Below, in pieces: positions 8,275 to 55,194 of a stretch of DNA of 64,000 bases. Source of the stretch: Psammoneis japonica (lineage: Eukaryota); assembly GCA_008632985.1 (NCBI GenBank), contig QPGO01000014.1, positions 310,001-374,000 of the forward strand, read 5' to 3'. Numbering within the stretch: the stretch's first letter is position 1; every line of letters begins with the position of its first letter. The notes beneath the pieces were generated by a model. The model saw only the letters and a program-made list of their open reading frames with translations. It ran no database searches and was not told the DNA's origin. A program made the position numbers and the translations under genes.

Positions 8275-8421
8275 GTTTCTACGACCGTGAAAAATGCCGG
8301 GAAAGCGAGATAAAAAGTTGTCTGATCAGACGATGAGGCTCGCTCGATCGGCTCACAAAACAAATGAATCGAAACAGAGAGCTTGGTGCAGAGGTCTGTG
8401 GCACAGCGCATGGCCACAACC

Positions 8422-12879: not shown

Positions 12880-14030
12880 AACGGCTGCTCTGTGTGCTGT
12901 GCACACAAGGCTGATGAAGTGACAGCATGTTGCCCACCCAGCAAGCGGGCTCGTTGTTAAAAAAAAGTGAAATGCTGTGGTCAAGATCATGTTGCACAAA
13001 ACAATGATGTGCAAAAGAACAAAAATGCTTGGGGACAACTCTTTGCGCAGAGTTTGCTCCTTTGAGCCGGACCAAGGAGGGGCAGCAGCAGAAGCCAAGC
13101 CCCACTCCACCACACTGGCGCCGCTGAGTCTGCATGTTTTCTGCCATGAACCCATGCACTGGTGCACATCAACAAAGTCCAGCAGCCCTGGACTGCATGT
13201 GTGAGTGCTCAGGGTGTTGTGCATGCAGTCGAAAAAAAAGCTTTTTTTTGCGCTGTGTGTGTGTGGCACTTTTTTAAGGGCAGATCCCCATGCGGGTGGC
13301 GGACATTTGCGGGCCTCAAATTTCCCGCACTTCACCGGTCATTTGGACCTGTCATGGAACACTCCCAAACACTTGTGCATTTGACAAACCCTTTCAGGGC
13401 TGTCAGAACACTGCGAGAGCTGTGTGTTGAAGGCTTCAAAAACGCCCGCTTGTCGGCCTGTCCCTGTTGCCCAGTTGAAGTTGCCGCCAACTGTTGCTGC
13501 TCATGGCAAATGAGCCATGACTTTTCAGGAAATGCCAACAATTTGTGTTTGATCAGCTGCAGACACATCCACAGTCGACAAGCCAAATGTCGCACATCAT
13601 GGGCACAACCACTGCCCAGCCATTCTGTGATGACATGTCGCAGGGACAGGGACAAAGTTAGACCTGCAGCATCGCTGGAATTTTTTTTGGCAAATGCACA
13701 TGCTTTTAGTGCAATGAAGAATTTTTTTCCAAAAATTGATGGGTCTGTAAACATCCGCCCTCACCCAAGCACATCCATCCTCAAAGGGGGCGCAGCACAT
13801 GCACACAGTGGGGGGGCACATGATCGTGTTGTGTGTCCTTTCAACATTTTTGCCAATTGGTCATTCAGAAAAGCTTTAACTATCATGTTGTTGCAGGCAA
13901 TGTAGATGGCTTGGCCTCCAGAGATCAGATTTTGCGACCATGGCAAGCATTTGAAGGAAGAAGGAAAGGGAGGCAGGATGGAGTTGGAGGGATTGATGTT
14001 TGTCAAGTTTGTTACTCGTGACTGAAATTT
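12880..14030. other. TpA/CpG-depleted island, degraded unidentified element or gene
   Basis: Abrupt TG/CA-rich composition between two intact genes. Residual minus-strand ORF pieces with no recognisable domain. Confidence 0.55.
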
Positions 14031-15413: not shown

Positions 15414-15801
15414 AACTGGCTTTGTTAGCTTTTGGTTTTAGATCCAGTGGATCTTGAGTAGTTTTCTCTCTCCATCAAGTCTCTCATTGCATCAGTCCAG
15501 TTTTCGACCAAAAACGCACAAAATAAAAATGAAAATAGAAAAACGGTGGAAAATTGATATTAATATCCGATCACGACAATAATTTTATCTCAATATACTT
15601 CTAAAAATGATTTTTTCAGAAAAAGTCGCGCCTTTGTGCTATTTCGCTATCATTCGGCGGGTCTTGGTGCTTGGTGTCTCGGTGGGGAAGAAAGTGATGT
15701 TGTGAAAGTTGAGACGCTAACACTGCAAGGTTAGACCCTCTCCCTAGCTAGCTAGAGCGTCGTCGTTTCTGCCTTCTGGTACTTGTTAATGATTCTTCAC
15801 A

Positions 15802-17605
15802 ATGTCTTCGGAAAACAGTGATGATGAGTCAACGCTGCAAGAAACAACGGCTTCTTCCTGGATAAAAAAGTCAGACCATGGGAGCATTCATTTTTCTGTG
15901 CCTCTTTCCGAGACCTACAGGCTCTTTACCCGTCCAATTCAGCGCCAACGATGGGGTGATACGCAGATTCATCCCGTCGTGAATTGGGGAGACTTGTTCT
16001 TTGACTTATTCTACGTCGGTGCAGCTTATAACCTCGGTTATATTATCGTGTACGATCCTACCAATCAGGGCCTCTTGTACTTTTGCGGAGCTTTTCTGCC
16101 TGTGATTCAAATGTGGATGGACAAGACCTATTACGATGCTCGCTATTTTACTCGGGATGACTTGTACCATCGCCTTTATGAGATTGCGCATCTCTGTGCG
16201 CTTGCAACCGCCATTGTTCATATTCGTCCCGTAAAGTTTCTGTCAAACCCAGAAGAACACATTGACATGTTTGGTATGTCGCTTGGATTCTTAGCTGCCC
16301 TTGTCTTTTCCAGTGGGCGTCAGCTGGAGGTTTACTTTTGGGTTCGCGGAGGACCTGAAGCCAAGACGAATTCACTGCGAGACTTGTCTGCCAAAGTCAT
16401 TCTGTTTGCCTTTTACCTTGCCTCCACAATTGTAGCAGGTACAAAGTACTTTCAGAATGAAGGAAGCAGCCGTCGGATGCTGGCGGGTGATGAAGAGGCA
16501 TCAAATACTTATGAAACATACTCCTCCTCGTCTACTGATCTTCCGATTTGGCTGTTACTTGCAGGATCCTTGGCGTGGTGGGCATATTTTGTGGGTTTGA
16601 TCGTTTTCCTTCTTCCTGGGGGAGGAGCGCACAAGCGGTGAGTATTACATTTCCCAGGGGAGCTCCAAGTCCCTTATCATGGCATACGCACACCTCATAC
16701 GTGTATATCTCGTTCCCGTCTTCTTCAGTTTCATTGTCCCCGCCAACATCAGCTTCACGATTCACCGTTATGGCGAATGGATCATGCTCGTGTTAGGAGA
16801 AAGCATTCTTAGTCTCTTGATTGTAGATGTGTTGGACCCGACGGGCAAATATTACCTTACCTTTTATGCAGGAATATTGTCAGTGGTACTTTTGCAGTAT
16901 CTACACTTTCGATCGCAACCTCACGACCCAGATGATCACGCCTTGAGAAGAAGTAAGAACCAAGGAGTTCTGTTTAGTGTTCTCATGGCGATTTATTCTG
17001 GTGGTTTGATCTTGATTGGGACGGCTTACAAGATGCTTGTGAATGAGCACGCACTTGCTCAGATTATTGCGGCTGATGACAAGGGCCGCATGATGTTGTT
17101 CGCTCCCATGCGCTTGCTTGCTGGTGGTGACGACTCGGGTCTCTCTACAGAAGAACGCCAACAGTCCGTAGCAAATTTATTTTGCGGCAGCATGGCTGTC
17201 GTTTGGTTGACCAATGATCTCATGATGATCAATCACAATGGACTCAAAGACAATCTTGGACGGTGTGTCTGCAAGGAAAGCAAGAGATGGAGTATTTCTG
17301 GAGTCGCAGTCATTATGGCACGCATTGGACTCATCATCTTTATTGCCACTCTGCGTGGATACGTTACGGATCCAACAGCTCTTTCCTTGATTGGACTCGC
17401 TGGAATTTCCGCACAAGTGATTCTTCGTGTTGTTGGATCGTTGGTGTTCCCGTCCGATCAAGTCCATGCTGTAGATACTCAAGGACTGCAGGTTCCAAAT
17501 AATCAGGACGGCGAAGAAAAGAAAAAATGGCCTAATGTAACCCACGCAGTCGCACAGCCATCGGAAGAAATCGAAGCAGGGACGGACGCCGTAGAACGGA
17601 ATTGA
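15802..17605 (+). CDS. Low-temperature-requirement A (LtrA)-like multipass membrane protein; intron 16638-16728
   Basis: WGDLFFDLFYV and HRYGEWIMLVLGESI motifs, many TM segments, phase-2 GT-AG intron. Confidence 0.8.
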
Positions 17606-18135
17606 TTTGTTTGGGTTGAAAATGAAGAAGATGCTTCAGATGCATTGCTACAGCATGGACTATAATAGGTTGATGACATCGAGAGCGATAAAAGGCTTGT
17701 GTTGTGCATACGTATACAAGTTGTATTGTTACCTTTTATCATTCTCACTACACACAATAATTATACCAATTTCCGCACAAGTGATTCTTCGTGTTGTTGG
17801 ATCGTTGGTGTTCCCGTCCGATCAAGTCCATGCTGTAGATACTCAAGGACTGCAGGTTCCAAATAATCAGGACGGCGAAGAAAAGAAAAAATGGCCTAAT
17901 GTAACCCACGCAGTCGCACAGCCATCGGAAGAAATCGAAGCAGGGACGGACGCCGTAGAACGGAATTGATTTGTTTGGGTTGAAAATGAAGAAGATGCGT
18001 TCAGATGCATTGCTACAGCATGGGACTATAATAGGTTGATGACATCGAGAGCGATAAAAAGGCTTGTGTTGTGCATACCGTATACAAGTTGTATTGTTAC
18101 CTTTTATCATTCTCACTACACACAATAATTATACC
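17404..18135 (+). repeat. Head-to-tail tandem duplication (~364 bp unit) of the LtrA-like 3' end and UTR
   Basis: 17404-17767 is repeated at 17768-18135 with four single-base insertions and no substitutions seen. Confidence 0.9.
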
Positions 18136-18444
18136 ACTGGGAACCTGGCTCTTATCTTGGGCTAACTTTGATCCAGTTTCCCATGTAAACACATTCATCC
18201 CCGTTCATCCCCTACACATTTATTTCAGACCTTAACTCGGCAATAATCGTCATATCCATGGCAAGACAATCCCCGCTACACGCCCTGTCAAACCACGAAA
18301 GGCGAAATCAATCACGCCTCAATGCGAATCAATCTCGATGCACATACGTCCTTCGTGATTGAACAAGGTGTCCAAGAAGCTCTCAAGACATCTTCAAATC
18401 AAAACTATGAACTACGCATCGGAGAAACCCGTCCCCTTCCCCTT

Positions 18445-23799: not shown

Positions 23800-24322
23800 T
23801 TTTCTTTCTATCGTCGCGGTGGCTTTTTGGTTCTCTCAATGATATGAGAAGGTCGGCAACAGTGAGAAAATGACACAGGCAGTGTCACAATTCACAATCC
23901 TGTGTCTGAGAAAGATCGCGACCAAACCGTGCTGCGTAGAATCTACGCGAAAAAGATACGGAGATTCGACACTTCGTGAGTTGCCTTCCGTGACATCCTG
24001 TAGAATTCTACGAAGTTTTTCCCGTATTGTTTTGGCGGGAAAAAGGAAAGGAATGTCCGCGATGTCAATGTTTCAAAATGCTGCAATCTGATTGGCTAAA
24101 CGACAAACTTCACTCTACTCCGCAATCTTCCCGCCATCCGATCGGCAGAACGAGTCGTCGCGGATCTTTGCTCGCAAATGTCGTGAAGCGAAACGATGGC
24201 CGAGAAGTTAGGTGCCGGTTCTGACAGTGAACAAGAATCAAGGTCAAGGCTGTGCGTTTCGAGAGTTCGATCTCTTTTTTTATTTAATGTCTGCCTTGTT
24301 TCGGTTCCGCCAAGAGCAAAAA

Positions 24323-24850
24323 ATGAGTAATTATCCCTTTCAAAAGACACAAGAAGAGTGGCGTCGGCAATTGACTCCGGAAGAACATCACGTGCTCCGA
24401 GAGGGTGGCACTGAATCGTACGGCAAGGGCGAATTCTGTCGATTCTTTCCCAAAGCTGGTTACTTTGCATGCAAGGCCTGCAAATATCCCCTCTATTCGG
24501 CGGCATCAAAATTTCAAGACCCGGGTTGGGACGCGCACTCCAAGTGTTGTCACAGCAACGACAAGCCTCATATTGGTGTACGAGAGGAGAATGAGGTAAA
24601 ACGAAACCCGTTTTGACTGTGCTCTGTATGGAGTGTTTGCCGTGTAAATAACGCGGTTAATCTTCTTTTTGCAAAACAGGTTTGCTGCAACAACTGCGGA
24701 TCGCACATGGGTCATGTGTTTTCCGAGCGCCGCCATAGCAATACAGGAGAGCGTCAATGAATCAACAGCATATGCGTAGTGCATGTTCCAGATCACCCCC
24801 CTCCGGAAAGCATTTCAGGAGAAGGACCATTGGGTGTGTTTTCAAAGTAA
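24323..24850 (+). CDS. msrB: Methionine-R-sulfoxide reductase B, selenoprotein (in-frame UGA at 24758-24760); intron 24596-24679
   Basis: [23 protein letters not shown] and [12 protein letters not shown] zinc motifs, GERQ-[TGA]-INS at the catalytic RxCxNS position. Reading continues to TAA 24848-24850, with a SECIS downstream. Confidence 0.9.
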
Positions 24851-24904
24851 AAACAAATCTTTAGAATAGAGTGGATTTGCGGAGAGCGGAAGTAAAGGAG
24901 TCTT

Positions 24905-24976
24905 CGTGGATGCGAATGACGGCGTGTGTGATCAAGAAATACATAGCTTGCCAAGCACGCCTGAAAGCATGGCACG
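24905..24976 (+). promoter_or_regulatory. Eukaryotic SECIS element in the msrB 3' UTR
   Basis: Lower stem CGTG.ATGC/GCAT..CACG, core ATGAC (24916) / TGAA (24962), upper stem GGCGTG/CACGCC, apical AAGAAA. Confidence 0.8.
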
Positions 24977-25088
24977 TGGTTTCCTTTTCTCGCTCTGCTG
25001 TCCACATTTTGAATTGAGAAACTGATTTCTTGTCGTGTTTCGTTGAGAGTCGGGTCTACTCGTAGAACAAGGAATGGCAGTTCTCTAG

Positions 25089-28000
25089 CCCCCGTGAAGA
25101 TTTTCGTCTGTTTTTTGTCCGTTCGTGCCCACAGGGGCACGAAAGGAGGCTACGTAGGACTGTACCAGCAAATCCTGTAGATGCACGTTTCCATGCCAAC
25201 AAGATTCATGAACCTCTCAAACGAAAAGAGACAATGGCGTCGTTCTGGATCAACGCCGTAGTTGCCACGTCTGAAACCGCAGCGCGCCGCTTTTTCTGCT
25301 CGTAGACTTGTACGCTGTCCTGGTACAAAGGTCATTGCATGCATGGAGTCTACGATGAGGTCACACTGAAGGAAGAATTCTCGAATTTGAATTCTCAGCA
25401 ATCAACCGAGTTTGTTTACTTTCTATTTTTTTATGCTGCCAACCAAGTCTTACAATCACACATCCCTGATTCTACCTGCATAAGACGACACTGAGATTTC
25501 AGTCCACACATAAGTTCACTTGCACCAATGGATGAATCGGCGTTGTGCTCGGTGACGACGTCCGAATCAGATTGGGTGGAGCATTTCAATCCAACAGAGG
25601 ACTTGAATTTTTGCGACGAGGATCTCCACTTGATTGAGGACAGCTTGATGGATGAGCATGATAGAACCGAGCAGTCAAAGGACCGTCCAAAATGGAAAGT
25701 GGACAATGATGGGAAAGATGTTAAGATTGCCTTTAGCCAAGCTCCCCAAAAGGTGTGGGAGACGGCCAAAGCCGAGATTACAGAGTGTCAAGGTTATTCA
25801 GAATGGTTCCAAGGACGCAAGCATGCATTGACCTCCTCTGGTTCTGATGCTCAAGTTTCAGTTCACCTTAGATTGGACAAAGCGCGAGAGCAGAGGCAGT
25901 CGCATTGGGTGTGCCTTGAGAAGCATCTCGACACGGCATCTGGTGTCGAAGATTTGGTGTGTCAAAATGATGACGATGATACGGCACCGGCTCAGAATGA
26001 CAATGATGATGCCACTGCACAATCCAATCCAATGACTGTTGGTGAAGGGAATGCTGCTGGCTCAGAGGACACCGATGATGATGACATTGTAGATTGGGCT
26101 GAGTTGGAAAAACACTTAGATTCAGACATGGAAGAGGAGGAGCGGATTTCTGTTATCGAGAGTCGCCGTTGGGAAGCAAAGGAGGCGTTGAAGAAAGCAA
26201 AGGAAATTCTCAGTGATGCAGTTGACTCCACCAAACGAAATGAGGTGTTGCGAGCCAAACTAATGTCGGAGTTGAAAGCTGGCGAGCACAAGGATCTCCT
26301 GAAGGCGTTCGTCAAACAAATGGGGTGGAAGGTTTGTAAGACGCACAAGGCAAACCTGAAAAACGCAGTTACGTGGCTAGAGTGTACCCCCGCCTCTCGA
26401 CCCTACATCGTGCTGAACAAGGAGCAACTGAAGGTAAGCATGTGTAATTGCTGCTACTGACATTATTTTACTATAGATCTAACCGAGTCGCTCCGAACCA
26501 TTATTTGCTGACAAAGGCAAAATACCGAGAATGTATTAACAGCACGATACCGTCGAGTGTGACAAAAACGATGACTTCATAGCGATTCTGAGCGGTGAAG
26601 TCTCCGCACCAGTTGCAAGAGATGGCGATAGTGAGCCAAAAACGCCACTGGAAGCAATGGTGAAAACCACTTTTCTTCCACCACTCAAAGGTGAGGCGGC
26701 GGAGCTCTGTAGATTGGACATGAGATGGAAGAACAGTGCGGAAAAGATTTTCTTGGTGTTGCAAGCGGCGAAGGAGTGCGACTCGAAAACAGATCCGTAT
26801 TTGTTGCAAACAATCTCTTCAGAGCCGGCCTGCTACAGAAGCAAAATCGCCCTTATCAAAAGGACAGTCCAGACTTCCTCTGCACTGGAACAATAGACGA
26901 TAAGCGAATCGTAGCGGTTGTCGAGATGAAGGCGCGTTGCAAATCTACTACCGCCGCCAAGGAGCGTCAGCGCATCTCCGAAGTTGGTGAATTTTCGTTT
27001 GTATCATGTGATTCGCCTGAGTTACGCAAGTTCATACTTAAACGTTCAGAGGCAGTTCAGGTGAGCTGATGCACGGAATAACTATTTGATACTGTCGTTG
27101 TAACGGTAACTCACCTCAGTCTCCACGACTTCCTCGCTACAGTGCGCTCATCATGCAAGCACCCTTGGAGTCAACCACGTCATTCTTGCCACTGGAGACA
27201 GAGTAGGCCTTACAGCAATGGTGGTTATTGAGTGCTCCGACGAGTTCCTTGAAAACTACGAAAAGTGCATCAACGACATGTACGAGTCGGCATTGAAGTG
27301 GCGTACGAGGAGGGCGTCGACATTCCAACCGAAGAGCTCAAGGCTGCTGTGAAAACTGCACGAGTAAAGGTGGACTATGAGTCATTTATGAAATCAATTT
27401 ACTTTTGGAAAGAACTGACGAAGCCTCAGTACTTACCACTCCCACCGTGCGAGAGGATCATTCCCATGCAGGATGCGTACTGGAACAACACCAAGCATGG
27501 GTCGGACGTCAAAACCCAGTACTGCCAAAACCTATCAGCCCCAATTCCTGTCACATCTGCCGGAGCTAAGGCATACGACCGCATGCAAATGACAGCACTA
27601 TCCGACATCCACAAAGGCGCTACCATGTTTATTACCAAGGAAGATCTCAACCAGTGCAATTCCCTTCACGACTTCAGAGACGATGCAAAGCACAAGATGA
27701 GCTTCAGAAAAGCACTCCTTCGATTGTCTAAGTTTTCAAGAAGCTGAGCCAGCAAAATCTCCAAAGTGGAATTGGTTCTCCTTCGTCTTTTACAGGGATC
27801 GTTACACCATCACCAGCAACTCCAGTACAGCCGCCGAGGTGGATGCGCGGTGAAATTCAAAAGGAACCAACCAATTTTGTAGCAAAAGGAACTGGAAAGT
27901 CTCCCAAGCGCTCTCACCTAGAAGCTCTACTGAAACCAAAGGACAGTTCTGAAGAGGTCCCTTCCAAGCGATTCAAGAGTTGTCGGGGTGTACCTGTGTT

Positions 28001-28493
28001 CAGAGCAAATGAAAACAATGGAAGTAAGAAAGGGAGTGGAGCTTTGGCGCGATGTATCATGTGCGACTCCAAGACACATTGGTATTGCTCTGGCTGTCGT
28101 CAATGGTATTGTTGCGATAGTCCCCGTCCGCAAAGCGCTGGAGTCCCATACTTTCAAGATTCGTCAACGTACCGTGATGGGAAAAACAGGGATCGACCAA
28201 TCGCCGGCGTGTACACATGCTTTATGCACTGTCACCCATCCATTGTGAACCAGGGATAGTAATATGTATTTGTATTTAGTGAATATATCATCTTTTTGAC
28301 CACCGGCGTAATTGTAGTACTTTGGAATATCATTTGTTGACAAGACGAGCGTTGTGTTGATGCTTTATCAATGAGAGCCGGTGTTTGTTTTGCACGTACA
28401 ACTCGGTATGAAACCTACAGGGGCGTCGTTCGTGCCCACAGGAGCACGAACTTTTGCGTTCGTGCCCACACGCGCACGAAACTATCACGCGGG
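25089..28493 (+). mobile_element. piggyBac-like DNA transposon with CTAG target-site duplication
   Basis: CTAG|CCCCCGTGAAG ... ATCACGCGGG|CTAG imperfect TIRs. Subterminal TTCGTGCCCACA...GCACGAA hairpins at both ends. The paralogous locus near 50465 lacks the insert. Confidence 0.88.
25528..28259 (+). CDS. Transposon ORF: YqaJ/lambda-exonuclease-like domain followed by piggyBac-type C-terminal catalytic motif and Cys-rich domain; two introns (~26434-26516, 27061-27141) and homopolymer frameshifts
   Basis: QGYSEWFQGRKHALTSS, LGHEMEEQ, DSPDF, VEMKAR (YqaJ-like); YWNNTKHGSDVKTQ and CIMC..THWYCSGC...CFMHCH (piggyBac-like). Confidence 0.65.
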
Positions 28494-28759
28494 CTAGTGG
28501 TCGATTGGTGTTGTATGCCTTTTTCAGTTTATCATCTTTTTTATGAACATCTCTACCAGTGGATACTGCTTTTTCCATCCCAGCCAGGTTAGATATAGGA
28601 AGGAACGTAAAGGCGATAGTGTTGGCGGGGAATTCGTGTTGCATGAAATTCGAGCTCCGCACTCTCAAAAACTGTAGACTTTTCGAAAATGCGTCAGAAA
28701 GCTCGGCTGCGCCGTTTCGCAACAAAAGAAACTTTTTTTGGCAAATGCCCACAACTTTA

Positions 28760-30194
28760 ACAATGTCACCACAACACACCCAAGACACCACTGCTGTCAA
28801 CAATTGTCACACATCATTTGTGGAATTTGTTTGTTGACTCAGCGATGTGACAGCAGTCATTTTGAAGGATGAGGCACTTTTGACTTTTGAGTCACAAAAC
28901 CATCTTCACAAGGCATCAGCGCGAATGTCTGTGTGAGCACACAAGAAACCAAAAAACCGCAACTTGGCATTGTTCTTCATTGTCCACACAACACATTTGA
29001 TTGCTTGCCCTTGCAAAGCAACCATTTTTGAAGGACGAGAGGCATTTTGTGTCTTTTCCTCAAATTTTTGCTGAGATTTGAAACTTGCTCAGGACTCTGC
29101 AAGAATTTGCTGCCTGTGATTCAGCCCTTCACTGGCCGAGTGTTCAGAGAGAATGTTTTCATCAATGGCTGGCATCATGGGGGCTTGCTGCTGACTGCTG
29201 TTGCAAAAAGAGAGATTCTGTTCTTGGTCAGCTTTGTTGGCATGATCGATTGTGTTGCTGAAAAAATGTGCAAAAAGTGCGCTCTGGTTTGAGTTGACCC
29301 CGTGCCCCTCTGCACTTGCAAGCAAGGCAACAATGAGAGATGGAGGTGCAAAGGTTTTTCTGTTGCAGGGAATTCCTTGTTTGGCCCTTGATTTCCTCCG
29401 ACAAGGAAAGATGAGGAGGAAACCAGATGAGGAAAAAATGGTTGTCATGGCTCGCTGCGAAGAAGTTTGTTCTGGCATCATCCTTTCATCCACTGGCATC
29501 ATCCTTTCATCCACTGGCAGCAAACTTTTTTCTGCTGGCAGCAGACTTGTCCAGAGCATGCAGCTGCTAAAACACTTTAGATGCTGCGTTGGACAAGTGA
29601 GGCAAATGCTGTTGGGGGGACCACATTGTGGGAATCATGGGACCAACACAACAATGCCATTCTCATGGTCATGATTTGGACACTGGCAAATCCGTGCACA
29701 ACGGCATGACACAGAGGCAGAAGTCCAGACTGCATGCTTGTGGTCTGGCAATTGCTTGGCCAAGGATTGATTCAGTTGACGAACATCTCACTCACTCCAC
29801 TCACAGGCTTTGAAATTGGTTGGCAATCATCAGCCCCAAGTTTAAATCCAGCATCTGTGAAGCAAAACGGCTGGCTTTGCAAGGCACTCATGCTGTTGCC
29901 AGCTGCTTTGGCATGGCATCACCTGATGGTGATGCCAATTCAGGCTGATTGCTGCATGCCCCTGCCGCACTTTAAGTGCGCTGGGGGTGTGGGTCAGCTT
30001 GTTTGTCGGAGTTGCGGGGCGGAAGTGCAGCAGCACCTTAAAAACAGATTGTGGGTTTTGTTTTGTTGGGGAGCATGTTGTTGGACAATGAAAAATTGAT
30101 TGTTGCAACATGGCTGCAAGTTGCAACCAACACGGCACTTTTGTCCAGCAGTTGACTCATCCTGTTGCAAGTGACAGAATCCACAGCTGCCAAA
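28760..30194. other. Heavily degraded TpA/CpG-poor sequence, continues at 31792-32380
   Basis: Composition only. Interrupted by the deleted Copia copy. Confidence 0.5.
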
Positions 30195-31786
30195 TGTCAG
30201 CCCAACTGTCCCATGACAGACAGACTGTGTGTGGATGATGATCATTCAGACAGATGAGCAGATCACTCTGAGATCTGCCTCTCACTTTTTTTCACTGGTG
30301 CTCATGTTGTCACAGTCCTGCAACAGTGATTGGGGAGTCCATTGTGCCATTGTCTCAATTGCCCTTCGGTGTTCTGTGAGGTTGTGGCCTCACGCTGTGC
30401 CACTGAACTCTGTGCCACACTTTCCATTTTGGTTCATTTGCTTTGTGAGCCAATCAAGCAAGCCTCATCTTTTGCTCCCAAAAGCATGCTTTGTGAGCCA
30501 ATCAAGCGAGCCTCATCTTTTGTTCCCAAAAGCATTTCTTTCTCACTTTCCTGGCATTTTTCATGCTTGTTGAAACACACCAGATTTCCTTGTGTGCATG
30601 ACCAAAATTGTTTTCACCAGATGCAACCATGGCCATCTCCTGGCCCTGCAAAAGCCACTCCCACAACTGTTGCAGAGATCTGCTGTGATTTCCAACCACA
30701 TGTCACCACACCGCATCTCCACGCATCTCTGAAAGGGCTTTGCATGGACTCCACATTTCATCTGGATCTGTTCTTTGAAGACCCTGAGCATGCTCAACCT
30801 GAGAAGAACATCGCGGACTTGTTTCATGATCATCTTGTCAATCAAGCATTCCCACCTTGCACAACAGACCTCGCCAACACACAGTCTGTCAAAGCAATTG
30901 TGGATCAAGCACCTCTTCAAGTTGTTGACCCTGACAAGCCTTGTGTGTTTTGCTTGACTCCTGAAGCTCCATCTTCCATGATCAAATTGACTCTTCAGAA
31001 TCACAGACAATCTTCACACATTCTCGTGTCAATGCAGCATGCCCACATTGATCCTGACATGCAATGGAATTGTGGAGATCGGAACAAGTTTTCTCTAACT
31101 CCTGGATGCACAACTGTTGTTGGTGTGAATGATCTGGCAGCAGCGCTCAAAGAGTTTGCATCAAAAGCCAAGTTCTGCCTTTGACTGCTGCTGGCAAGAC
31201 ATCAGGAAGCGCTGCATTGTCCACAACATCAAAACACCCATTCAACCCCAACACTCCACCCAAGGATGTTCACGAACGTTGTGATCACAAGGAATGTGGT
31301 GACATCACATTGAAGAGCTCGCTCACTCATTTTGACCATGGACACCATCACTGTGTTGATGCCAAGGCTCCAGGATGGGTGCTCCATGCTTGCCATGCTC
31401 AACACATGATGGGACACTGCCGCTGATGTTTTTTTTTCGTGGCGGCCTTCCTGCTGCACATTGCCCCCTTGTTTGTTGCACATTGGACTTGGACACTTGT
31501 TGTGTCCTTTGGTCTCCATCCCCACATCATCCCTGTTCTGTGGATTGATCTGCATTGTCTTTCATTTTTAGACATTGCAGATCAGGGGGGAGGGTGTCAG
31601 CCTGTCTGTCCCGCAATGGACAGACTGCACATGGATGATGACCAGACCATTTTTTGGACAGACAAGCAGATCTCTCTGAGATCTGCCTCTCACTTCTTCT
31701 TTTCTGCCAATGCTCATGTCATTACAGTCCCAGTGCTCAGGGAGTCCATCACACCATTGTCCTCATTGCCCTTCAGTGTTCTGTTG
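30195..31786 (+). mobile_element. Internally deleted (TRIM-like) relative of Copia-1
   Basis: LTRs 30195-30379 and 31595-31786 homologous to Copia-1 LTRs, TSD CCAAA on both sides, PBS-like GGTTGTGGCC, PPT AGGGGGAAGGG. 5' gag is fused near 31365 to the last codons of RNase H. Confidence 0.88.
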
Positions 31787-40267: not shown

Positions 40268-40449
40268 TGCAAGATCTAGCTTGAGATGACTTGACAAAAG
40301 TTGTGGGAGAACCAAGAAGAGACCCGATCAGCGCAATCGCTGATTGGAACTGACTTCCAACGGCTTCCTGAGTGTCCAATGCATCAGTCAATGTGCATGT
40401 GTCAGAGAGGGCACACTTGGTCATAAAGTGCATGTGCCCATCTCATTCA
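40268..40449 (-). repeat. Gypsy 3' LTR (TpA-depleted copy)
   Basis: Colinear with 45744-45925, 17 transitions. Confidence 0.95.
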
Positions 40450-40499: not shown

Positions 40500-43400
40500 C
40501 TAAAACTCAAACCCAACACGCACGGTGAAGGGAACCCAGATGTTGGGAAGAAACCCTCAACTCCGGTGCGGCACCACGCGGCGAACATTGATTCGCTCAA
40601 TGATGTGCGGTGCTCGCAGCACCGAAACAGTCCCGTTGGCGTGGACTTGTGCAATTCAAAACGGACCACAGGCTCGTTCTTCCAACTTTGAAGGATCCAC
40701 CGACTTGATTGACACATCTTGACCAACCAGACAATCGCAGGAATGGCGCTTCGCATTCTGTCGTCGTAGATTCTCGTCAACCAATGCTTGTCGGTTGGCT
40801 TGTGTCGCAGCAAGGTCGGAGACAACTGGCAAGTCCAAAATCACATCACGTTGAAACACTGGAGCTCCACTTGAAACACCCACAGACCTTGAGTGGGAGC
40901 ATCGTAAAGCACAAGAGGCTGCAGCAAGGGCATTGTCCACAATCTGCTCGGCCTGTTGAACATTTAAAGGTGGGTCAGCGACAACCACAGCACGTGAGAT
41001 GTTAGCTGCTGTCTGGTGCATTCGTTCACAAATGGAGTTGGCTGTAGGATTTCGAGACGTCGTCGGCGCATCAGCAACACCCGCTTGATTTGGTGGCATT
41101 TGGAACTCCCAACCAATGAATTCTCCACCATTGTCATGGATGCATGATTCGGTCTGGGACAACGAGCTGACCAAAGATTGCGAAACTTGCCAGTCACATG
41201 CTGAGAAGTTTTGTTGTCAGCGCGCTTGAGTTCAGTCAATCCAGTGACAGCATCAATGCAAGTGAGAGCACTGAATTCAATCTCTTGGTCTTAAATCGGC
41301 ATTTTCCACGGTCCAATGAGATCAACCGCCACTTCCGTCCACGGAGCCAAAGGTGCTTGACGTTGAGGCAATTCTCCATGTCCAGGACCCAGCTGTTTAA
41401 ATCGTTGACACGCATCGCAAACAAATTCGTTACAACATCGACGCAATGCAGGATGACACACATGAGTCCGAACACTTTCACACAATTGCACAACTCCACA
41501 ATGGCCCAACACACGATGGCACCATGCAACGGCATCTGGCAACAACGCAGCAGGAATGCAAATTTTCCAGGCTCCAGGCGGATCATTCAGATGCAAACAA
41601 CAACAAATCAAGGGACGATGATTCACAATTTTGACCACGAACTGCTGCGGATTTTGTTGTCTTTGTTGGTTCAGTTGGAGGTCTTCGAACTGGAACTGTT
41701 GTGTCCTCAGCATCTCAGTGGGATTCGGCATTTCGTCCAGCGTTGGGTAATTCAAAAAGCACTCAAACAATTCAGGCTCATCAAGCAGAGAGGAAAAGGT
41801 GGCGTGAGACTCATCAGAAGGATCAACCGGAGCACGGCAACACTTGAACCTGCAAGCGCCCAACTCCAAATCTTCCTCTTCCTTGGCTTTGCTCAGTTCC
41901 TTGGAATCCAACTTTTCAAAATGAACAATTTTTCCTTTGCGTTTGCTGCTTGGCCCAAGGCTCTTCCCCTCCGAAGGTGGATCCATGCGTGGGAGTCAAG
42001 AAAAACAATCGGCGAGCACGTTGTCCTTGCCTTCAACATGCTCAAAGGTGGGCACGAAATCTTCGAGAAACAGTCGCCAACGGAAGGACACGCTGTGCAT
42101 TCAAAGTGTGACAGGTGAGATTTTTGTGATCAGCATGAACAGTGATGTCAGCACCGAGCAACATGGAGCGAAATTCCTTGAAGCACATGACGACGGCCAG
42201 GAGTTCTTTTTCCATTGTAGAGCAGTTGCATTGAGCCGCCGAGAGCTTCTCAGACCAATGTGCCACAGGTTCACCATCTTGAACAATGGCGGCGCCCATC
42301 TGGCAGTCTGATGCATCGGTGCAGACATGGAATGGTGGGTTGTGGTTAGGACAGGCCATCAATGCTTCCGCCACAATTGCTGCTTTCATCTCCTTGAACG
42401 CTTTCGGACATGATTCTGTCCATTGGAACTGACTCTTGCCTGTCAATTCAGTCAGAGGTGCAAGCAGGTGAGAACAGCCAGGCCACACATTGCGACAATG
42501 GGTTGCTGCACCAAGAAACGACCGGAGCTGAGTAGCATCCCGTGGAGGTTGCATTTGTGGGATCGCCTCGACCTTCTTTTTCCACGGTTTAATTCCAGTT
42601 GGAGCAAGCCAATGCCCCAGGAAATCAGTTTCTTGGACACACCACTCGCATTTCAACGGGTTAACTTTCAAACCATTCTCCTCGAGATGATGCAGCACCT
42701 TGTCAAGATGAGAGAGATGGCAACCAAAGTCAGCATCAAATGTGCCAATGTCATCAACACAAGTTTCAACATCCAAACCATGTGGGATCTTTTCAACAAT
42801 GGACTGAGCAATGTCTGGAGCTGGCTTCAATCCCACAGCCGTGCGACAACACTGGAACTTCCTGTGCGGAGTTGCAATCGTAGCGAGCTCCTTGCTTTCA
42901 TCGTCCAACTCCAAATTGTAGTAGAACACAGTGAGGTCCAATTTCGTGAAGAACTTGTAGCCCGCTCTCCGCTGTAGCACATCTTGAATGACTGGCAAAG
43001 GACATGCTTTTCGTTTGAGGACCTTGTTGAGCTCCCAAAAATCGGACACCCATCGTGCTCGGCCGTCCTTCTTCGGAGCAATGAAGGTGCCGGCTGCCCA
43101 TTCCGTAGGTCCACATGGTCGAAGTACGCCGAGGTTCACCAAATGCTTCAATTCCTTTTTGAACACTTCTTCATTGACTCGAGCAACAGGAAACGGTTTT
43201 GAGTGACATGGAACAGCATTTTCATCCACTTCGAGGTGCACCTTTTCATGAGGACAGTGCCCCAAAGTTCCGTCAAACAAGGTCGAACATTTTTCCAATG
43301 CCGCCAGTGGCTTCTTCTTTTGCTCCTCCGTGAGATGATCCAAGTTCCGAACCACCTCGCTGGATCTGTTGCTTCACACTTGGCGTCGAGCACACAGTTG

Positions 43401-45743: not shown

Positions 45744-45925
45744 TGCAAGATCTAGCTTGAGATGACTTGATAAAAGTTGTGGGAGAACCGAGAAGAGACC
45801 CGATCAGCGCAATCGCTGATCGGAACTGACTTCTAACGGCTTCCTGAATATCTAATACGTTAGTTAATATACATATATCAGAGAGGGCACACTTGGTCAT
45901 AAAGTACATGTGCCTATCTCATTCA
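45744..45925 (-). repeat. Gypsy 5' LTR (TpA-intact copy)
   Basis: Direct repeat of 40268-40449. Retains 15 TpA, including a TATA-like tract. Confidence 0.95.
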
Positions 45926-46029
45926 GATTTGACAATCTTCACAGCAGCAGGGCCATGACCCTGGATTACCGTTCCGGTAGGTGAAGTGCACAGTAACAGA
46001 GACACTCATTTGAAGCCGCCTTGACAAAA

Positions 46030-47286
46030 ATGAAAGATGAAAATCAAGACAATAATGAAAGAAGTTCCGAGGAATCGCCAGCTCCATCATTAAGACCAAC
46101 ATGCAATCGCCTTGGATGGGTAGGGCGAGTCATTATTGTGTTGGCATTGCTTGCAATATATAAAATATCGTTGACAGCGGAGAAAATAAAAAATGTGGTG
46201 CAAGAGGAAGAAGGAGAAAGTTCTATGGCCAAACAAAACGTCTCAAAAGGGTCTCCTAGCGCAACTACAAACTCAACGAAAGCTCCTTTAGGATCTTCAT
46301 CGGATGCGGCTGATTCTTCGTTTGATTGGGACGCCATGGCAGATCGCCTTTGTCCGAATATGGTTCCCAACGTTGCATTGGGTGAGAAACTCTTTCAACT
46401 CGCACGTCAAGAATTGCCTGGCAACAATGCTACCTGCCCTAGCAATACCGACGAGATGTCTAGACAGTTTTATCAAACCTTTTGGGGAGTCAAGAGCTAC
46501 ATTACCAACAGCCAAAAACGGATTGCCTTTGTTCCCATTTGGAAATGTGCCAATGACGAATTGCGTGCTTACTTGGAACGAAACTTTGAGAGCGATAATT
46601 TCTTTGCCTTGACGCAAACGCAACGAGAGAGCATGGCGTGTTTAGTGACCGTCATTCGAGATCCTGTCTCCCACTTTTTATCAGCGTACAATGAAGTGGA
46701 TTTTCGACTCGACAAGGGGCGATCGGATCGAAGTAGTGTCGCTAGTACATGGAACTTTTATCACGCTCCAAAAGGAACGAAACAAAGATTTGAACAGTTT
46801 TTGATTGATTTCTTGTCTTGTCCATTTGAACGTGGGTTTCGAGGCATTTACAAAGATTTATGGGGAGGCTATCCTCACACTCTGGAAATTGGTCATACGT
46901 ATTCCATGTCGTCAGTGTTGCACTATTTTGCAGTCGAGACTCGAGTCAACGTGACGAGCAATCTCACGTATTTGCCAACACTCACCAATCTTTCTCATAC
47001 GTTTGGACCCTTTTTGGTACACAATTGTCCCGAAGGAACCTTTTCCAATCAAAGTGAAAGTTGGTTAAGGCATGAAACTGTGTACACAAATCACCATGAA
47101 TCTTCCAAGGATGTATCTGGTTCGTATCATGCGGCGATTGACGTATGGAAACAAGCTTCGTCTTTTTCCAAGGCTTTGTGTGCCATGCATATTATGGACT
47201 ATGCTTGTTGGAATGGCTTGCCAGATGGCATACCACATGTGTGTATGGAAGTGTACAAATCGTATGATGAGCAAGGAATTCTTTGA
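46030..47286 (+). CDS. Type II membrane sulfotransferase-like protein
   Basis: N-terminal TM, IWKCAND and IRDPVSHFLSAYNE motifs. Confidence 0.75.
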   Translation: MKDENQDNNERSSEESPAPSLRPTCNRLGWVGRVIIVLALLAIYKISLTAEKIKNVVQEEEGESSMAKQNVSKGSPSATTNSTKAPLGSSSDAADSSFDWDAMADRLCPNMVPNVALGEKLFQLARQELPGNNATCPSNTDEMSRQFYQTFWGVKSYITNSQKRIAFVPIWKCANDELRAYLERNFESDNFFALTQTQRESMACLVTVIRDPVSHFLSAYNEVDFRLDKGRSDRSSVASTWNFYHAPKGTKQRFEQFLIDFLSCPFERGFRGIYKDLWGGYPHTLEIGHTYSMSSVLHYFAVETRVNVTSNLTYLPTLTNLSHTFGPFLVHNCPEGTFSNQSESWLRHETVYTNHHESSKDVSGSYHAAIDVWKQASSFSKALCAMHIMDYACWNGLPDGIPHVCMEVYKSYDEQGIL

Positions 47287-47653: not shown

Positions 47654-48750
47654 ATGAGAAGTCAAAAAGAAAGAAATAATGCAAGAAGAGCATTGGGCAG
47701 GAGTCCTCTGTTTCCGTTTTAATTGTTCTCTTTGCTGTTGTCACATCAGCACTTTTGAGTGTTCCCACTGTTCTTCAAAGTGAAACGATGCCACAGTGCA
47801 TCACAACACCAGTGATGCCAATGATTTTTCCACTGGGCATTGTTGGGACATTTTTGCTTGGCAGTGGAAATCCCCAGCTTTGGAATGCCATGTGCTCCTT
47901 GTTTCTGCTGCAGTTGACTCAACTCATTGTTCCTCAAAAACTGGACATCTTGGGAGCCGTCACTTGTTGATCACTTGAATTTAGTGGCACTTGGTCAAAA
48001 CAATGCTTCACATCAGCATAAGATCATTTTCTTTGAACAAGACTGCAGCTGTTTGTCCAAACTTTGATGGTTTTTCAATGATGACTCATGAACACCAATT
48101 TATGATGCCCATTGTGAGTGTTTGCTCATGCCACAAAAGAGTGTTTTTGTGTCCTCCAAAACACATCTTCCTCATCTTGAACATGCGCTCAATGCAACAT
48201 GAGCATGCTGATGGAACCCATCTAAGCACCCATGTGCCAAGCTCCATTGGAGCACATTCAAGGCAAACAATGGCACACCACTGCATTTCTGCATCTGTCC
48301 ATGGTGCAAAAATGTGAGTGTTGAATCAAGACAGATCCAGAGACAATTTTTTTGCCACTCTGCTCTCCACATCAGGTGGCAGGGTGGGCCCCACTGGCAC
48401 AGTTGTTTTGTGAGCCAGCAACGCAGGTTCCAGACTCCACCAACCCGGAGGACATGTGCCATTGGGTTCCAGATTCCATTTGGTCAGAAGGAACTTTGAA
48501 CCTTCCGTTGGATTCTGGATTCCATCATCAAGCTGCACACCAGTGTTGGGTCGTAGGTGTCATGTCTCATGAGCCACTCTCTTGGGTGTGACAGATGGGG
48601 CTGCCAGTGTTGAACACACAGGCCTCTCCAGAGAGTGGGTTGGGTGCTGCTGCACACAATGGAGTTCAAGCACAATGTGGTCATCTCATGACACAAAATT
48701 GCGCATGAAGGCGCAAAGGATTTCTGTTGAGCTTTTGTCAATGCCGTTGT
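47654..48750 (+). pseudogene. Possible hypermutated remnant of a host-type (type II membrane) gene
   Basis: ATG followed by basic then hydrophobic codons, then TpA-free broken frames. No domain recognised. Confidence 0.3.
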
Positions 48751-49733
48751 CAAGTGTGTTGCAGCTCATCACAGAACTCAAGAGCTCACAACTGGCGGAA
48801 GAGCATCCAATTTGTTTTGTGAGGTTCATGAGACTGGGTGGGTGGCACAGAGTGAGACAGTTTTGGAGTCAATGCCACAACCCATTGCAACCATCACCTT
48901 GCCGCTGCTGTCACTCTGCCACCTCAGCTTGCTGTCACCCAGTTTGTTCTGTGTGGAAGTGTTGATGGTGGACAAATGCTGGGGAGGGGGGAGATTCGTC
49001 CTGCTGCTGGTCAGCAAGGATTCTTTCTGAATGAGGCACAAATTGGTTTGCAGCCTCAGCTCCTGTGCTGAAGACATGCCTTGGGCCTGACCCACTTTTT
49101 AGCCCAAGTGTCAAAGCACTTGTGCCAACTTGACTTTCAATTGACTTTTGACTGCAACCCAAATGAGTTGCCTGTCAATGTGAAGCATGACATGCTTGTG
49201 ACCAGTTGTGGGATTGAGGAGATGAGGAGGAGCAATGAGTGTGTGTGTTTGCTTCAGCACCCCAGCAGTCTTGTTCCCCACCCTGTTTGGTCTTTTGTGG
49301 GTGCCCTGTTCCCAAGTGTGAGGAGGATGAGCAAGGACTCCAAAAAAGCAACATCAAGAACATTCTGGCAAAGTCAACAGGGGAAGAGGCATTGCATTGA
49401 ATGGTTCATTGATCAGCCTCACTGGACAAACATCTGCCAGAAGAATGAGAACAAAGATCCACTCTGAATGAGGCCACAAATTGGGTTGTGCCTCAGCTTC
49501 TCTGCTGTGGGCCTGACCTGCTTTGGCCCATGTGTTGAAGCACTCACACCAAAACATTGCTTTCAACTGACTTTTGATTGCTGATTGACTTTTGATTGCA
49601 TTTAAAATGAATTCCCTGTTGGCCAGTTGTGGGACCATGGAGAGACCAGGAGGAGCAAAGAGCAAGTTTTTTGGCACCAGATCACTTTTTTTGTTTGGCA
49701 TCTGCCTTGTTCTTTTGGCTCTGCCAAGAAAAA

Positions 49734-50249
49734 ATGAGCAATTGTCCCTTTCAAAAAACAGAAGAAGAGTGACATTGGCAATTGACTTTGGAAGAATGTC
49801 ATGTGCTTCAAGAGGGTGGCACCGAATCATGCTTTGATTCTTTCCCAAAACTGGTTGCTTTGCACGCAAGGCCTGCAAACACCCCCTGCATTCAGTGGCA
49901 TCAAAATTTCAAGACATGGGTTGGGACATGCACTCCAAGTGTCATTGTGGCAATGGCAAGCCTCACATTGGTGTGCAAGAGAAAAATGAGTTGAGACAAA
50001 ACTCACCTTGGCTGTGCTTGGTGTGTCAAGTGTTTGCCACTCAAGCAATGCGCTTGCTCCCCTTTTGCAAGACAGGTTTGCTGCAACAGCTGAGGGTCGC
50101 ACATGGGTGCCATGTGTTTTCTGAGCACCACCACAGCAATGCAGGAGAGCATTGGCAAATCAACAGCTCATGCATGGTGCACGTGCCAGACGACCCCCAC
50201 CTGGAAAGCATTTCAGTGAGAAAGACCGTTGGGTGTGTTTTCAAAGCAA
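49734..50249 (+). pseudogene. msrB: Hypermutated paralogue of msrB (intron retained, Sec codon and SECIS degraded)
   Basis: Colinear with 24323-24850 including intron and 3' flank. Homology extends ~49670-50625. Former TAA stop reads CAA. Confidence 0.9.
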
Positions 50250-50860
50250 GAAGTGTCAACAAATCTCTGGAATGAAGCAGATTTTTACAGAGAATGGAAG
50301 CAAAGGAGTTTTCATGAATGCAAATGATGGTGTGTGTGATCAAGAAAATGGGCAGCCAGAAAGCATGGCACATGGTTTCCTTCTCTTGCTCTGCTGTCTG
50401 CACCACTTTGTTTTGAGAAACTGACTGTGTTTCGTTGAGAGTCGGGACTCGCAAAATGAATGACAGGTCTCTGCTAATTGATTGTTGTTGCACTAACACC
50501 CCTGGCACACATTTTTCAGTTCGTCATCGTTTTTTTGCATCTCTGCCAGAGGAAGCTGCTTTTTAAATCCCAGTTTTAGTTGGCGGGGAATTCGTGTAGA
50601 ATTCGAGCTCCGCACTCTCAAAAATTATTACCTCCGGCCGACGCTTATATCATCACGCGCGTCACGACTCCTCACGGCGAGAAGTATGAACACCGATCGA
50701 CCCTTTTGCTTTATCCTTCATCATTTTTTGTTTCCTTCGTTGCTATTTGCTGACGCTTTACCTTTTCACCTTTGCATCCTTCCAGAAAGCAATCCACAAT
50801 CCATCGACTTCTCAAATCCTTTCGCTTCTTTTTAAAAAACTGCTCGTACGCGAATTCGTC

Positions 50861-51805
50861 ATGAAAATTCAAGAGCGAATCTTTGTGGTTCTCACGCTCC
50901 CGTTTTTGTGGGCGTTTGCATGCTATGACACCGCCATCTTTGAGCACCAACTTTTAGAGTTAGGCAGTTCAGATGAGTTTGCCATGTGCGACGGTTGTTG
51001 GTGCATCAAGGATGCTGGAGGAGGAGAGTGCCGCCAACCTGTTCCACCCCAAGCTTATACGGACTTGCTTCCTTCGTTGCGTGCGTTAGAATTGACGAAT
51101 CCTTTGTATGAGTTGGATTGCGACCCATATGAATCCCCCGATTGCGACACTACCCCGCCACTGGAACAAGGTGGGGCATGTGTCGTGAAAACCGACTGCT
51201 CGGCAAAATCGTACGAGTTACAATCGTACGGGGGAACCGCGCAAGAGGCTATTGACGAGGGGCTTATTGTCACTCATGAAGGGCCTTGTGCGACGTGTTC
51301 CACGTTGCAAGATTTGTCTATATACATGGAATTTGGAGCAGAACTGTCAGCAAGATCAGAAGAGTGCGGCATTTTTGGTCTTGTCAATTTGACAAGAGGG
51401 TTCGAGTGCTTTGTGAGACTGGGCATGACGGACTCTTGTGCTTGGACTTGGGCGTACAACACTAGAAACACTAGAAAAGAATGCGGAGCACTTTGCACAG
51501 CATTTTTAATATCGGGTGATCCCTCCAATGGACCACCTCCCAATTGCACCCTCGCTGAATGTCTTCAATGCGACGAGGACAACTCGGGTGCAATATTCAA
51601 ACAGTTTTCTGGCAGAACTCGGCGCAATTCGTATTTGTGGTCCAACATTGGTCGACCATGCTCTGTATATGGCGTTGCGCTAAACCACACTGACCCCTGT
51701 CCGCCTACTGCCCCGCCTACGGATTCACCTACTGATGCATCGTCAGGCAATGTGGTATCACCGTTTCGGAGTTTTTCGAGAATATGGCGTGAAGTTGCTC
51801 TCTAG
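50861..51805 (+). CDS. Secreted cysteine-rich protein of unknown function
   Basis: Signal peptide; THEGPCATCS, CLQCDEDNSG, GRTRRNS motifs; P/T-rich tail; normal TpA content. Confidence 0.7.
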   Translation: MKIQERIFVVLTLPFLWAFACYDTAIFEHQLLELGSSDEFAMCDGCWCIKDAGGGECRQPVPPQAYTDLLPSLRALELTNPLYELDCDPYESPDCDTTPPLEQGGACVVKTDCSAKSYELQSYGGTAQEAIDEGLIVTHEGPCATCSTLQDLSIYMEFGAELSARSEECGIFGLVNLTRGFECFVRLGMTDSCAWTWAYNTRNTRKECGALCTAFLISGDPSNGPPPNCTLAECLQCDEDNSGAIFKQFSGRTRRNSYLWSNIGRPCSVYGVALNHTDPCPPTAPPTDSPTDASSGNVVSPFRSFSRIWREVAL

Positions 51806-54279: not shown

Positions 54280-55150
54280 CAAGGAGATACAGCATGTTGC
54301 AACATTGGAGTGCAGCAGGACATTGTTGCCAAATCCTTGAATGCTGCAACTGCTGCTCTGGCAAGAACAAGCGCAAGAGCGGGGGGACACAAAACTGGCT
54401 GCAGCCGCTGGAGATGCAACACTTGTACAAACAGACAAATCAGCAAGACAAGCTGCAAGTAGAGGTGACCTTGCTTGTTCACCACAAACCACTGTTAGAA
54501 AATTGACTGAGCAAGTGATGGAGCAGCTTCTCCAATTTCCAGCGCAAGCAAGCCAGCAGCTCGCCCCCCGCAGCTTGCACAGCCTGCTGGGCTGGCTGCT
54601 TTTTCTATCTCCTCTCTCACTCTCCTCTGAGCAGAGAGTGCAGCACTGCAGCAGTGGCATCAAAAACCAAACAGAGCAGCACGCACAACAACCTTTCACA
54701 GCAACTGCCAATGCGCAAGGAGGGGGGGGCTGTCATCTTGTGGCTGCCTGCTGGCACCCTGCTGGCGGGCGCTTCTCTCTGCTCCAAAGAGGCTGCAGCA
54801 TCAGCACCAAACAACACCTGAAAAATGTGTGCAGCAAGTGGCAGGGGCAGAGGGCAGAGGCTGCTAAGCACAGCACCTGTCAAGCTGGGCAAAAACAGTC
54901 GAACGATGCACCACGCATTGTTTGTGCGCACGCACACTTGCTGCTGGCTGCCAGCACACAAAACTTGTGCGGAGGGCACAAACAACAATCTTGACAATGC
55001 AGGCAGGTGTGAGACATCCATCATTCCATTCTCAGGTGAATGAGAAAAAGACGTTGTTGTTTTGTCAAGAAAATTCTGACAACCATTGCCAGAACATTGA
55101 CGAAAAATTGTTCCGTGTGTCTTCTTCGGCATCGTGGGGATGTCAACTTG
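54280..55150. other. TpA/CpG-depleted island, unidentified degraded sequence
   Basis: TG/CA-rich with spurious overlapping ORFs on both strands. Confidence 0.5.
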
Positions 55151-55194
55151 TGCGAAAATAAAAAAATATATCCATCGATGTCCAAACGTTCTAA

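Follow-up and report, generated by a model that had tools for sequence, protein, structure and literature searches.

To our knowledge, programmed hypermutation of resident DNA is well known only from repeat-induced point mutation (RIP), a process of Neurospora and other fungi that converts C:G to T:A, mostly at CpA, thereby creating TpA, and that mutates both copies of a repeat within the bounds of that repeat. RIP is premeiotic in its timing and depends on a RID-type methyltransferase. In methylated transposons CpG is also lost by deamination of 5-methylcytosine, and CG methylation is a feature of the transposable elements of diatoms. A mutational process aimed at TpA has been described in the chlorarachniophyte Bigelowiella natans, where two integrated viral regions acquire de novo changes of TpA to TpG or CpA at ~6e-7 per site per generation (Mettrop et al. 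2026, bioRxiv 10.64898/2026.01.13.699255). According to the main text of that preprint, one of the two viral regions was shown to be single-copy, the TpA-poor clusters and coding sequences of B. natans are enriched in reverse-transcriptase and DDE domains, and an adenine deaminase was proposed, not demonstrated, as the agent. Here we describe a 64-kb stretch of nuclear DNA of the diatom Psammoneis japonica (contig QPGO01000014.1; referred to as the window, with all positions given as window positions) in which a second copy of the gene msrB, at 49.7 kb, has lost every aligned TpA of its source at 24.3 kb. We consider it likely that this is a dead, apparently single-copy duplicate situated at the edge of a ~2.9-kb domain in which TpA is mutated in situ, the mutation being aimed at the domain.

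The source gene lies on the forward strand at 24,269-25,088. Its intact SelR/MsrB reading frame consists of exon 1 (24,323-24,595), an 84-bp GT..AG intron (24,596-24,679) and exon 2 (24,680-24,847), followed by a TAA stop at 24,848-24,850. Both exons match the Pfam family PF01641 (SelR; E 1.8e-9 and 2.4e-9), and the frame also matches solved MsrB structures. The catalytic Cys or selenocysteine (Sec) position of a SelR domain, in R-x-C-I-N-S, is present in the source gene, and in alignment with the structures 3cez and 6tr8 an in-frame TGA occupies the catalytic-Cys position of the RYCINS motif. About 70 nt past the stop codon there is a hairpin (~24,916-24,966) flanked by AUGA and GA, with a z-score of only -1.2, which we take to resemble a selenocysteine insertion sequence (SECIS); a Rfam search of 24,000-29,000 with E up to 1 returned no SECIS and no other family. 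The source msrB is probably a selenoprotein methionine-R-sulfoxide reductase, for which it is a candidate. Its composition is normal for the genes of this window, with 28 TpA and 44 CpG in 820 bp and observed/expected ratios (o/e) of 0.48 for TpA and 0.99 for CpG. The remainder of its 3' region, at 28,494-28,670 on the same strand, is split from the gene by a 3.4-kb insertion.

Source and copy were compared by self-BLAST and then by two MAFFT alignments, A1 and A2. Self-BLAST paired 24,269-25,086 with 49,680-50,472 at 75.8% identity over 838 columns (E 3.9e-164), and MAFFT showed the match resuming past the 3.4-kb gap of the source, with 28,494-28,670 paired to ~50,500-50,617. Over 883 aligned positions the two differ by 135 transitions and 45 transversions. 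The hypermutated part of the copy, 49,680-50,560 on the forward strand, takes in the 5' flank, exon 1, the intron, exon 2 and the 3' region, and is followed by an unmutated 3' tail at 50,561-50,617, in which 4 CpG and 3 TpA are present. By its sequence the 49.7-kb copy is a dead pseudogene: downstream of the start codon ATG at 49,734, the Trp of codon 13 is now a stop, exon 1 carries a 16-bp deletion, the splice donor has changed from GT to TT, the stop codon from TAA to CAA, and the SECIS-like hairpin in the 3' region is degraded by a 12-bp deletion. Where the two copies differ at conserved MsrB residues, for example the Tyr in G-x-Y-x-C or the Trp replaced by a stop in the copy, it is the source that holds the conserved state. 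Since the source also has the intact frame, the polarity of change is from source to copy.

The duplicated segment extends from ~54 bp before the ATG to ~430 nt past the stop; no further extension was found upstream of ~24,214-24,269, and the 3' end of the copy, at 50,617, showed no poly(A) tail. The source intron is still present in the copy, and a spliced retrocopy is therefore excluded. However, because the segment has these limits, an unspliced transcript could have served as the template, and such an origin is as compatible with the data as a small segmental duplication. A sequence-only reading of this DNA had placed the msrB pair at coordinates that agree with ours to within 10 bases and had recognised an intron-containing host gene duplicate that was inactivated, as the early stop, the exon deletion and the lost splice donor bear out. 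Its further description of the duplicate as DNA-level and non-retrotransposed stands only in so far as the retained intron speaks against a spliced retrocopy, since the copying of an unspliced transcript fits equally well.

The spectrum of change in the copy is highly specific. All 29/29 aligned source TpA are altered, 14 to TG, 11 to CA and 4 to another dinucleotide, and 36/44 source CpG are altered as well (17 to CA, 15 to TG and 4 to other dinucleotides). The remaining 14 dinucleotides are retained at 49-80%, and even at the highest loss rate found among them (0.51) the loss of 29/29 has a p of ~3e-9. Transitions occurred at 28/58 TpA sites against 40/413 other A/T sites (odds ratio 8.7, Fisher p = 1.7e-11) and at 33/90 CpG sites against 34/322 other C/G sites (p = 4.9e-8). 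When the polarity was reversed, from copy to source, there was no comparable enrichment at TpA or CpG. The hypermutated part of the copy holds 3 TpA and 12 CpG in 881 bp, with a TpA o/e of 0.05. The examples that the sequence-only reading had given (ATGAGTAATTAT/ATGAGCAATTGT, GGTTAC/GGTTGC, CATATTGGTGTA/CACATTGGTGTG and the stop TAA/CAA) are all found in alignment A1. Its statement that essentially every TpA reads CA or TG in the copy is borne out in that every TpA is changed and 25/29 are changed to one of these two products, and the CpG loss that it had remarked on is evident too. The outcome that it had considered damaging to its own case, namely a lack of enrichment of substitutions at TA in comparison with the other A/T contexts, is at variance with the odds ratio obtained here.

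It might be supposed that no dedicated mutator is needed and that the copy was shaped by the usual decay of an old pseudogene, by GC-biased gene conversion or by selection against TA. The divergence at sites outside TpA and CpG is ~14%, so the copy is not young, and even genes in this genome contain less TA than expected (o/e ~0.5), both of which would suit such an explanation. However, ordinary decay does not account for transitions being 8.7-fold in excess at TpA relative to the other A/T sites, together with the loss of every aligned TpA, and gene conversion would lack the specificity for TpA. The sharp edges of the TpA-poor blocks (see below) tell against it as well, and it is contradicted by a pair of long terminal repeats (LTRs) belonging to a Gypsy retrotransposon in the window. 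We therefore give this explanation hardly any credence.

An element inserts with two identical LTRs, and these can thus be used to date the mutation. The Gypsy element lies on the reverse strand, with its 5' LTR at 45,744-45,925, its 3' LTR at 40,268-40,449, and RVT_1 and RNase H domains recognised by Pfam at 42,042-43,373. Its LTRs differ at 17/182 columns, comprising 13 differences of TpA type, 3 of CpG type and one other A-to-G change beside a mutated TA. At the 13 positions the 45.7-kb LTR has TA and the 40.3-kb LTR has CA or TG. The 5' LTR, which adjoins an open reading frame (ORF) at 45,997-47,286, was spared and keeps 15 TpA and 7 CpG, whereas the hypermutated 3' LTR retains 2 TpA, having lost 13/15 TpA and 3/7 CpG with only one substitution outside these dinucleotides. 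TpA loss is fast, outrunning CpG decay in this young LTR, and methyl-CpG decay, which would explain the accompanying changes of CpG to TpG or CpA in the same blocks, cannot explain it. The unequal treatment of the twin LTRs also places the end of a mutated domain inside a single element.

The second element, a Copia retrotransposon also on the reverse strand, has two hypermutated LTRs (1,400-1,597 and 8,418-8,615) and gag-pre-integrase, SH3 and RVT_2 domains within 1,775-6,250 (Pfam). Its LTRs differ at 15/196 columns, and at five dinucleotides CA in one member of the pair faces TG in its twin. Such discordance means that one ancestral TA was mutated independently on opposite strands. The same discordance is seen in contigs of other Gypsy copies, at 43,479/43,480 and 43,486/43,487. 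Since the members of each LTR pair were identical at insertion and now differ, mutation took place after integration, in DNA, and on both strands.

These findings bear directly on the possibility that the copy was edited before insertion, that is, that an unspliced msrB transcript was hyper-edited from A to I at UpA by an ADAR-like activity, reverse-transcribed and inserted already mutated. The segment does approximate a transcription unit, and ADARs typically prefer a 5' U, a point cited in the preprint (10.64898/2026.01.13.699255). APOBEC3 and ADAR of animals resemble the present process in being deaminase-type hypermutators of retroelements. They act, however, before integration on single-stranded cDNA or RNA and leave a one-strand signature, unlike the post-integration, both-strand action recorded in the LTRs here. 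In the msrB copy, too, TG and CA products stand near balance on one strand (14 to 11), where the editing of a single RNA strand would give only one of them. Moreover, the adjoining DNA, which is not msrB, bears the same signature, the last 57 bp at the 3' end of the copy escaped mutation, and the intron is retained with no poly(A) tail in evidence. Editing before insertion is thus a very improbable source of the changes.

In 1-kb bins, five TpA-poor blocks make up 31.1 of the 64 kb, with 0-10 TpA per kb against 30-60 elsewhere. Every one of them is enriched in CA and TG and depleted in CpG; TpA o/e is 0.05-0.12 inside the blocks against ~0.5 in the adjacent genes, and the edges are sharp. The blocks include the Copia and Gypsy elements. 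The msrB pseudogene occupies the right end of a TpA-poor and CpG-poor domain at 47,720-50,560, the left ~2 kb of which (47,720-49,679) has 8 TpA and 13 CpG in 1,960 bp, a depletion like that of the msrB part. The mutated tract accordingly does not share its limits with the duplicate: it runs ~2 kb beyond the left end and stops ~57 bp inside the right end. The tail beyond it differs from its counterpart in the source (28,614-28,670) by 2 mismatches in 47 aligned bases and one 5-bp indel, a low divergence against the 14% background (p ~0.03), and its bases precede the following ORF (50,690-51,805) by ~70-130 bp, just as the spared Gypsy LTR is the one beside an ORF.

Copy number was judged from contigs, the only reads found. 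Three sequencing runs were listed, all of one sample in one study, probably the sample used for the window assembly; two of the runs contain this DNA, both in the form of contigs, and no RNA data set containing it was listed. Depth, summed over contigs at 90% likeness or more and hence a rough guide that is blind to copies diverged beyond 90%, was 52-82 over 47.6-50.8 kb against 53-63 in the flanking genes and 1,000-3,500 in the Gypsy interval. The pseudogene block thus appears to be single-copy at a likeness of at least 90%.

A homology-triggered defence of the RIP kind, by which the msrB copy would have been attacked as a duplicate, has to be weighed against these observations. The two processes are alike in that both are DNA-level transition hypermutation with a strong dinucleotide bias, riddle transposons and can kill gene copies. 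It is also true that the mutated object is a duplicate, that the other mutated blocks are LTR retrotransposons, that the Gypsy family has many diverged copies (2,611 contig pieces, at the depth given above against ~60 in flanking DNA) and that a local repeat of ~430 bp inside the pseudogene block is mutated as well. However, the three features of RIP that sequence alone can reveal all failed here. The direction is opposite, TpA being lost and CpA and TpG gained; one copy is spared, the two source segments keeping 28 + 11 TpA and 44 + 7 CpG, intron and untranslated-region sites included; and the limits are not those of the repeat at either end. Further evidence against a trigger in duplication comes from the apparently single-copy depth of the block, from the different treatment of the twin Gypsy LTRs, and from a 365-bp tandem duplicate (17,404-17,768 and 17,768-18,136) whose copies differ by four single-base indels only and keep 21 TpA each. 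In B. natans as well, the hypermutated region derived from a nucleocytoplasmic large DNA virus (NCLDV) is reported in the main text to be single-copy. Taken together, a RIP-like response to the duplicate is unlikely.

Given an untouched source, a mismatch between the limits of tract and duplicate, a depth that appears single-copy, a spared LTR and an intact tandem duplicate, the simplest reading is that targeting is domain-based and that the msrB copy happens to sit inside one such domain. The sequence-only reading had gone on to propose that the system limits evolution by gene duplication as RIP does. This does not survive, since only one copy is mutated, the limits of tract and duplicate differ, the block has single-copy depth and the tandem duplicate is unharmed. 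Position in a silenced domain predicts damage better than duplication does, and a single case cannot carry a genome-wide claim. The tandem duplication itself is found where an LtrA-like gene (15,793-17,605) ends, and its indels may be assembly errors.

Several points weigh against a domain-aimed process. Firstly, the left 2 kb could be a decayed repeat with copies diverged beyond the 90% limit of the depth estimate, in which case a repeat-triggered process could have spread into a passenger msrB copy. The copy may have come in together with this part, carried by an element that is no longer recognisable. A transition-tolerant Smith-Waterman comparison of this part with the whole window on both strands peaked at 44, 44 and 42, where shuffled queries gave 32-38, which is unconvincing; tblastx within the window had a best E of only 0.029, and Pfam found nothing below E 0.1 in 10 ORFs. 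Secondly, the ~14% divergence at other sites implies either an old copy or a domain in which all rates are raised, and mutator action may have come before or after inactivation. Thirdly, the domain cue is deduced from CpG decay and boundaries alone. Lastly, the contigs probably derive from the assembly sample and hence do not confirm the base calls independently.

Two observations concern this same left part. The pseudogene's 5' flank consists of a local repeat, now diverged, that recurs every ~430 bp (49,020-49,260 and 49,455-49,680) and whose units show six CA-versus-TG discordances, suggesting that they were duplicated before TpA mutation. Inverted-repeat matches between 47.9-48.3 kb and the msrB copy were not collinear and were judged to be chance in CA/TG-rich sequence.

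As to mechanism, A:T-to-G:C transitions have arisen at TpA on both strands in situ, giving TpG or CpA almost to saturation, with a slower decay of CpG to TpG or CpA running alongside. The process would be aimed at a domain and not at duplicated sequence as such, and that domain most probably consists of silenced chromatin with methylated cytosines, covering transposons or DNA of recent arrival. The tract halts within a few hundred bases of neighbouring genes, and the process may be kept out of promoter-proximal DNA. The most likely chemistry would be that of an enzyme which deaminates adenine in DNA to hypoxanthine and favours a 5' T, along the lines suggested for B. natans. The chromatin cue, this chemistry and the enzyme behind it are what we infer; the contigs are uninformative as to whether the mutator is still active, since they cannot reveal rare variants and only 1 of the 11 contig differences listed within 47.7-50.0 kb is of the TA/TG type, with 5 of the CpG type.

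The TpA that survive in the TpA-poor blocks are not a random sample of contexts. Relative to normal DNA, the surviving density is 0.39 for TTAA and 0.36 for CTAA/TTAG, and there is no surviving ATAT (83 in normal DNA) or ATAC/GTAT (198 in normal DNA). This suggests that RTAY, an alternating purine-pyrimidine context, is the most susceptible and that YTAR most often survives.

Full-text literature searches found no account of TpA loss in diatoms, and the B. natans preprint was the sole relevant precedent; the word "diatom" does not occur in its text, supplements aside (10.64898/2026.01.13.699255). As far as its main text allows a comparison, the two cases share several features. Changes are almost exclusively A:T-to-G:C transitions at TpA, yielding TpG or CpA according to strand; they are confined to discrete regions in strong contrast to the neighbouring DNA, with rates in B. 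natans orders of magnitude above background; and a single-copy target is possible in both. There are differences too. The host here is a diatom, a stramenopile, and not a chlorarachniophyte, and the TpA o/e of the blocks is far lower than the 0.45 given for the NCLDV region of B. natans. Here the process is seen most clearly in LTR retrotransposons and in a copy of a host gene, there in integrated viral regions; of the targets here, Copia and Gypsy would accord with a process that singles out foreign DNA, while the msrB copy is host-derived. CpG decay always accompanies the signature here. The flanking-base effect, with RTAY fully lost, is not mentioned in the main text of the preprint. Finally, the rate was measured de novo in B. 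natans, whereas the evidence here comes from the comparison of sequences. We would suggest that a process of one and the same type is at work here in another lineage, near saturation.

The signature is also visible in protein sequence. The reverse transcriptase (RT) of the window Gypsy element contains 0.7% Tyr against a median of 4.1% among 120 listed homologues. The first 60 of these matches were aligned, and at the 17 columns with Tyr in at least 60% of the 59 homologues that remained the window RT has Cys at 9, His at 3, Phe at 2 and Tyr at 3. Among the 120 listed, only one is similarly poor in Tyr (0.8%), a metagenome protein of 751 aa (P0132), which has Cys at 8 and His at 5 of the same columns (13/17). 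Gypsy RT homologues from the diatoms Cyclotella, Cylindrotheca and Thalassiosira exigua are not Tyr-poor, and none of 31 metagenome loci related to P0132 was TpA-poor (TpA o/e 0.48-0.98), the contig of P0132 itself not being among them. On this thin sampling the process looks lineage-restricted.

The occurrence of the Tyr-to-Cys/His signature in an unrelated metagenome protein is also relevant to the suggestion of a base-calling artefact, in which a modification at TpA in silenced DNA would be misread as TG or CA by a long-read caller. That the contigs probably share their sample with the assembly would leave room for such an artefact, as would the four single-base indels between the tandem copies, which hint at a long-read assembly. 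Misreading would not, however, give the copy its indels, its nonsense codon and its ~14% of other substitutions; contigs match 50,059-50,608 with 0 differences, and the signal in B. natans came, by the account in the main text, from Illumina reads. Of all the explanations considered, this is the one that we credit least.

The insertion that splits the source, 25,089-28,493, is absent from the copy. It carries a 30-nt self-complementary repeat, once near its left end and twice near its right end, and has short inverted termini. CTAG flanks it on both sides, a possible target-site duplication. Because of the hairpin repeats, the inverted termini and the CTAG on both sides, a later insertion into the source is more likely than a deletion from the copy. 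Pfam searches of its ORFs with E up to 1 identified no family. It is not depleted in TpA (121 TpA, o/e 0.53), and given this normal content it may be a recent or untargeted mobile element.

The ORF at 10,058-11,338 encodes a sulfite oxidase whose best database relatives are 60-71% identical, and the named relatives are all from diatoms (Grammatophora, Attheya, Epithemia, Phaeodactylum, Mayamaea, Seminavis and others); the genes of the window have long ORFs and few introns. Two short blocks between genes, 12,849-13,748 (0.9 kb) and 54,461-55,169 (0.7 kb), are poor in TpA and CpG and contain no recognisable element; they may be solo LTRs or fragments. The region 30,195-31,784 holds older inverted fragments, 68-75% identical to 1,406-1,841 and 7,913-8,585 in the Copia LTR region, and lies inside the most CpG-depleted part of the block at 28.7-45.7 kb.

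The window provides three internal controls beyond those of the preprint, namely pairs of LTRs from which the mutation can be dated to the time after integration, an LTR that was spared while its twin was hit, and an unmutated original gene 25 kb away. The msrB pair in particular serves as a host-gene reporter. It indicates that the mutator follows position and not sequence family, that it is not tied to transposon sequence and that it need not strike both copies, and so narrows the trigger to position or chromatin state. There are practical consequences for annotation, since TpA-poor tracts have few TAA or TAG stops and hence distort gene prediction by yielding Tyr-free ORFs rich in Cys and His; they also distort repeat annotation and molecular dating.

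More broadly, and as a tentative proposal that goes further than the locus itself, diatoms or this lineage of them may possess a chromatin-domain-directed DNA adenine-deaminase defence that erases TpA from any DNA in a silenced domain, be it a retrotransposon or a stray host gene. Such a defence would act faster than methyl-CpG decay, prefer RTAY and be excluded from promoter-proximal DNA. It would be a mechanistically inverse counterpart of RIP, shared with Bigelowiella across lineages of SAR (stramenopiles, alveolates and Rhizaria). Diatoms are ecologically dominant, and since they are also transformable, both the enzyme and the cue that directs it become experimentally reachable.

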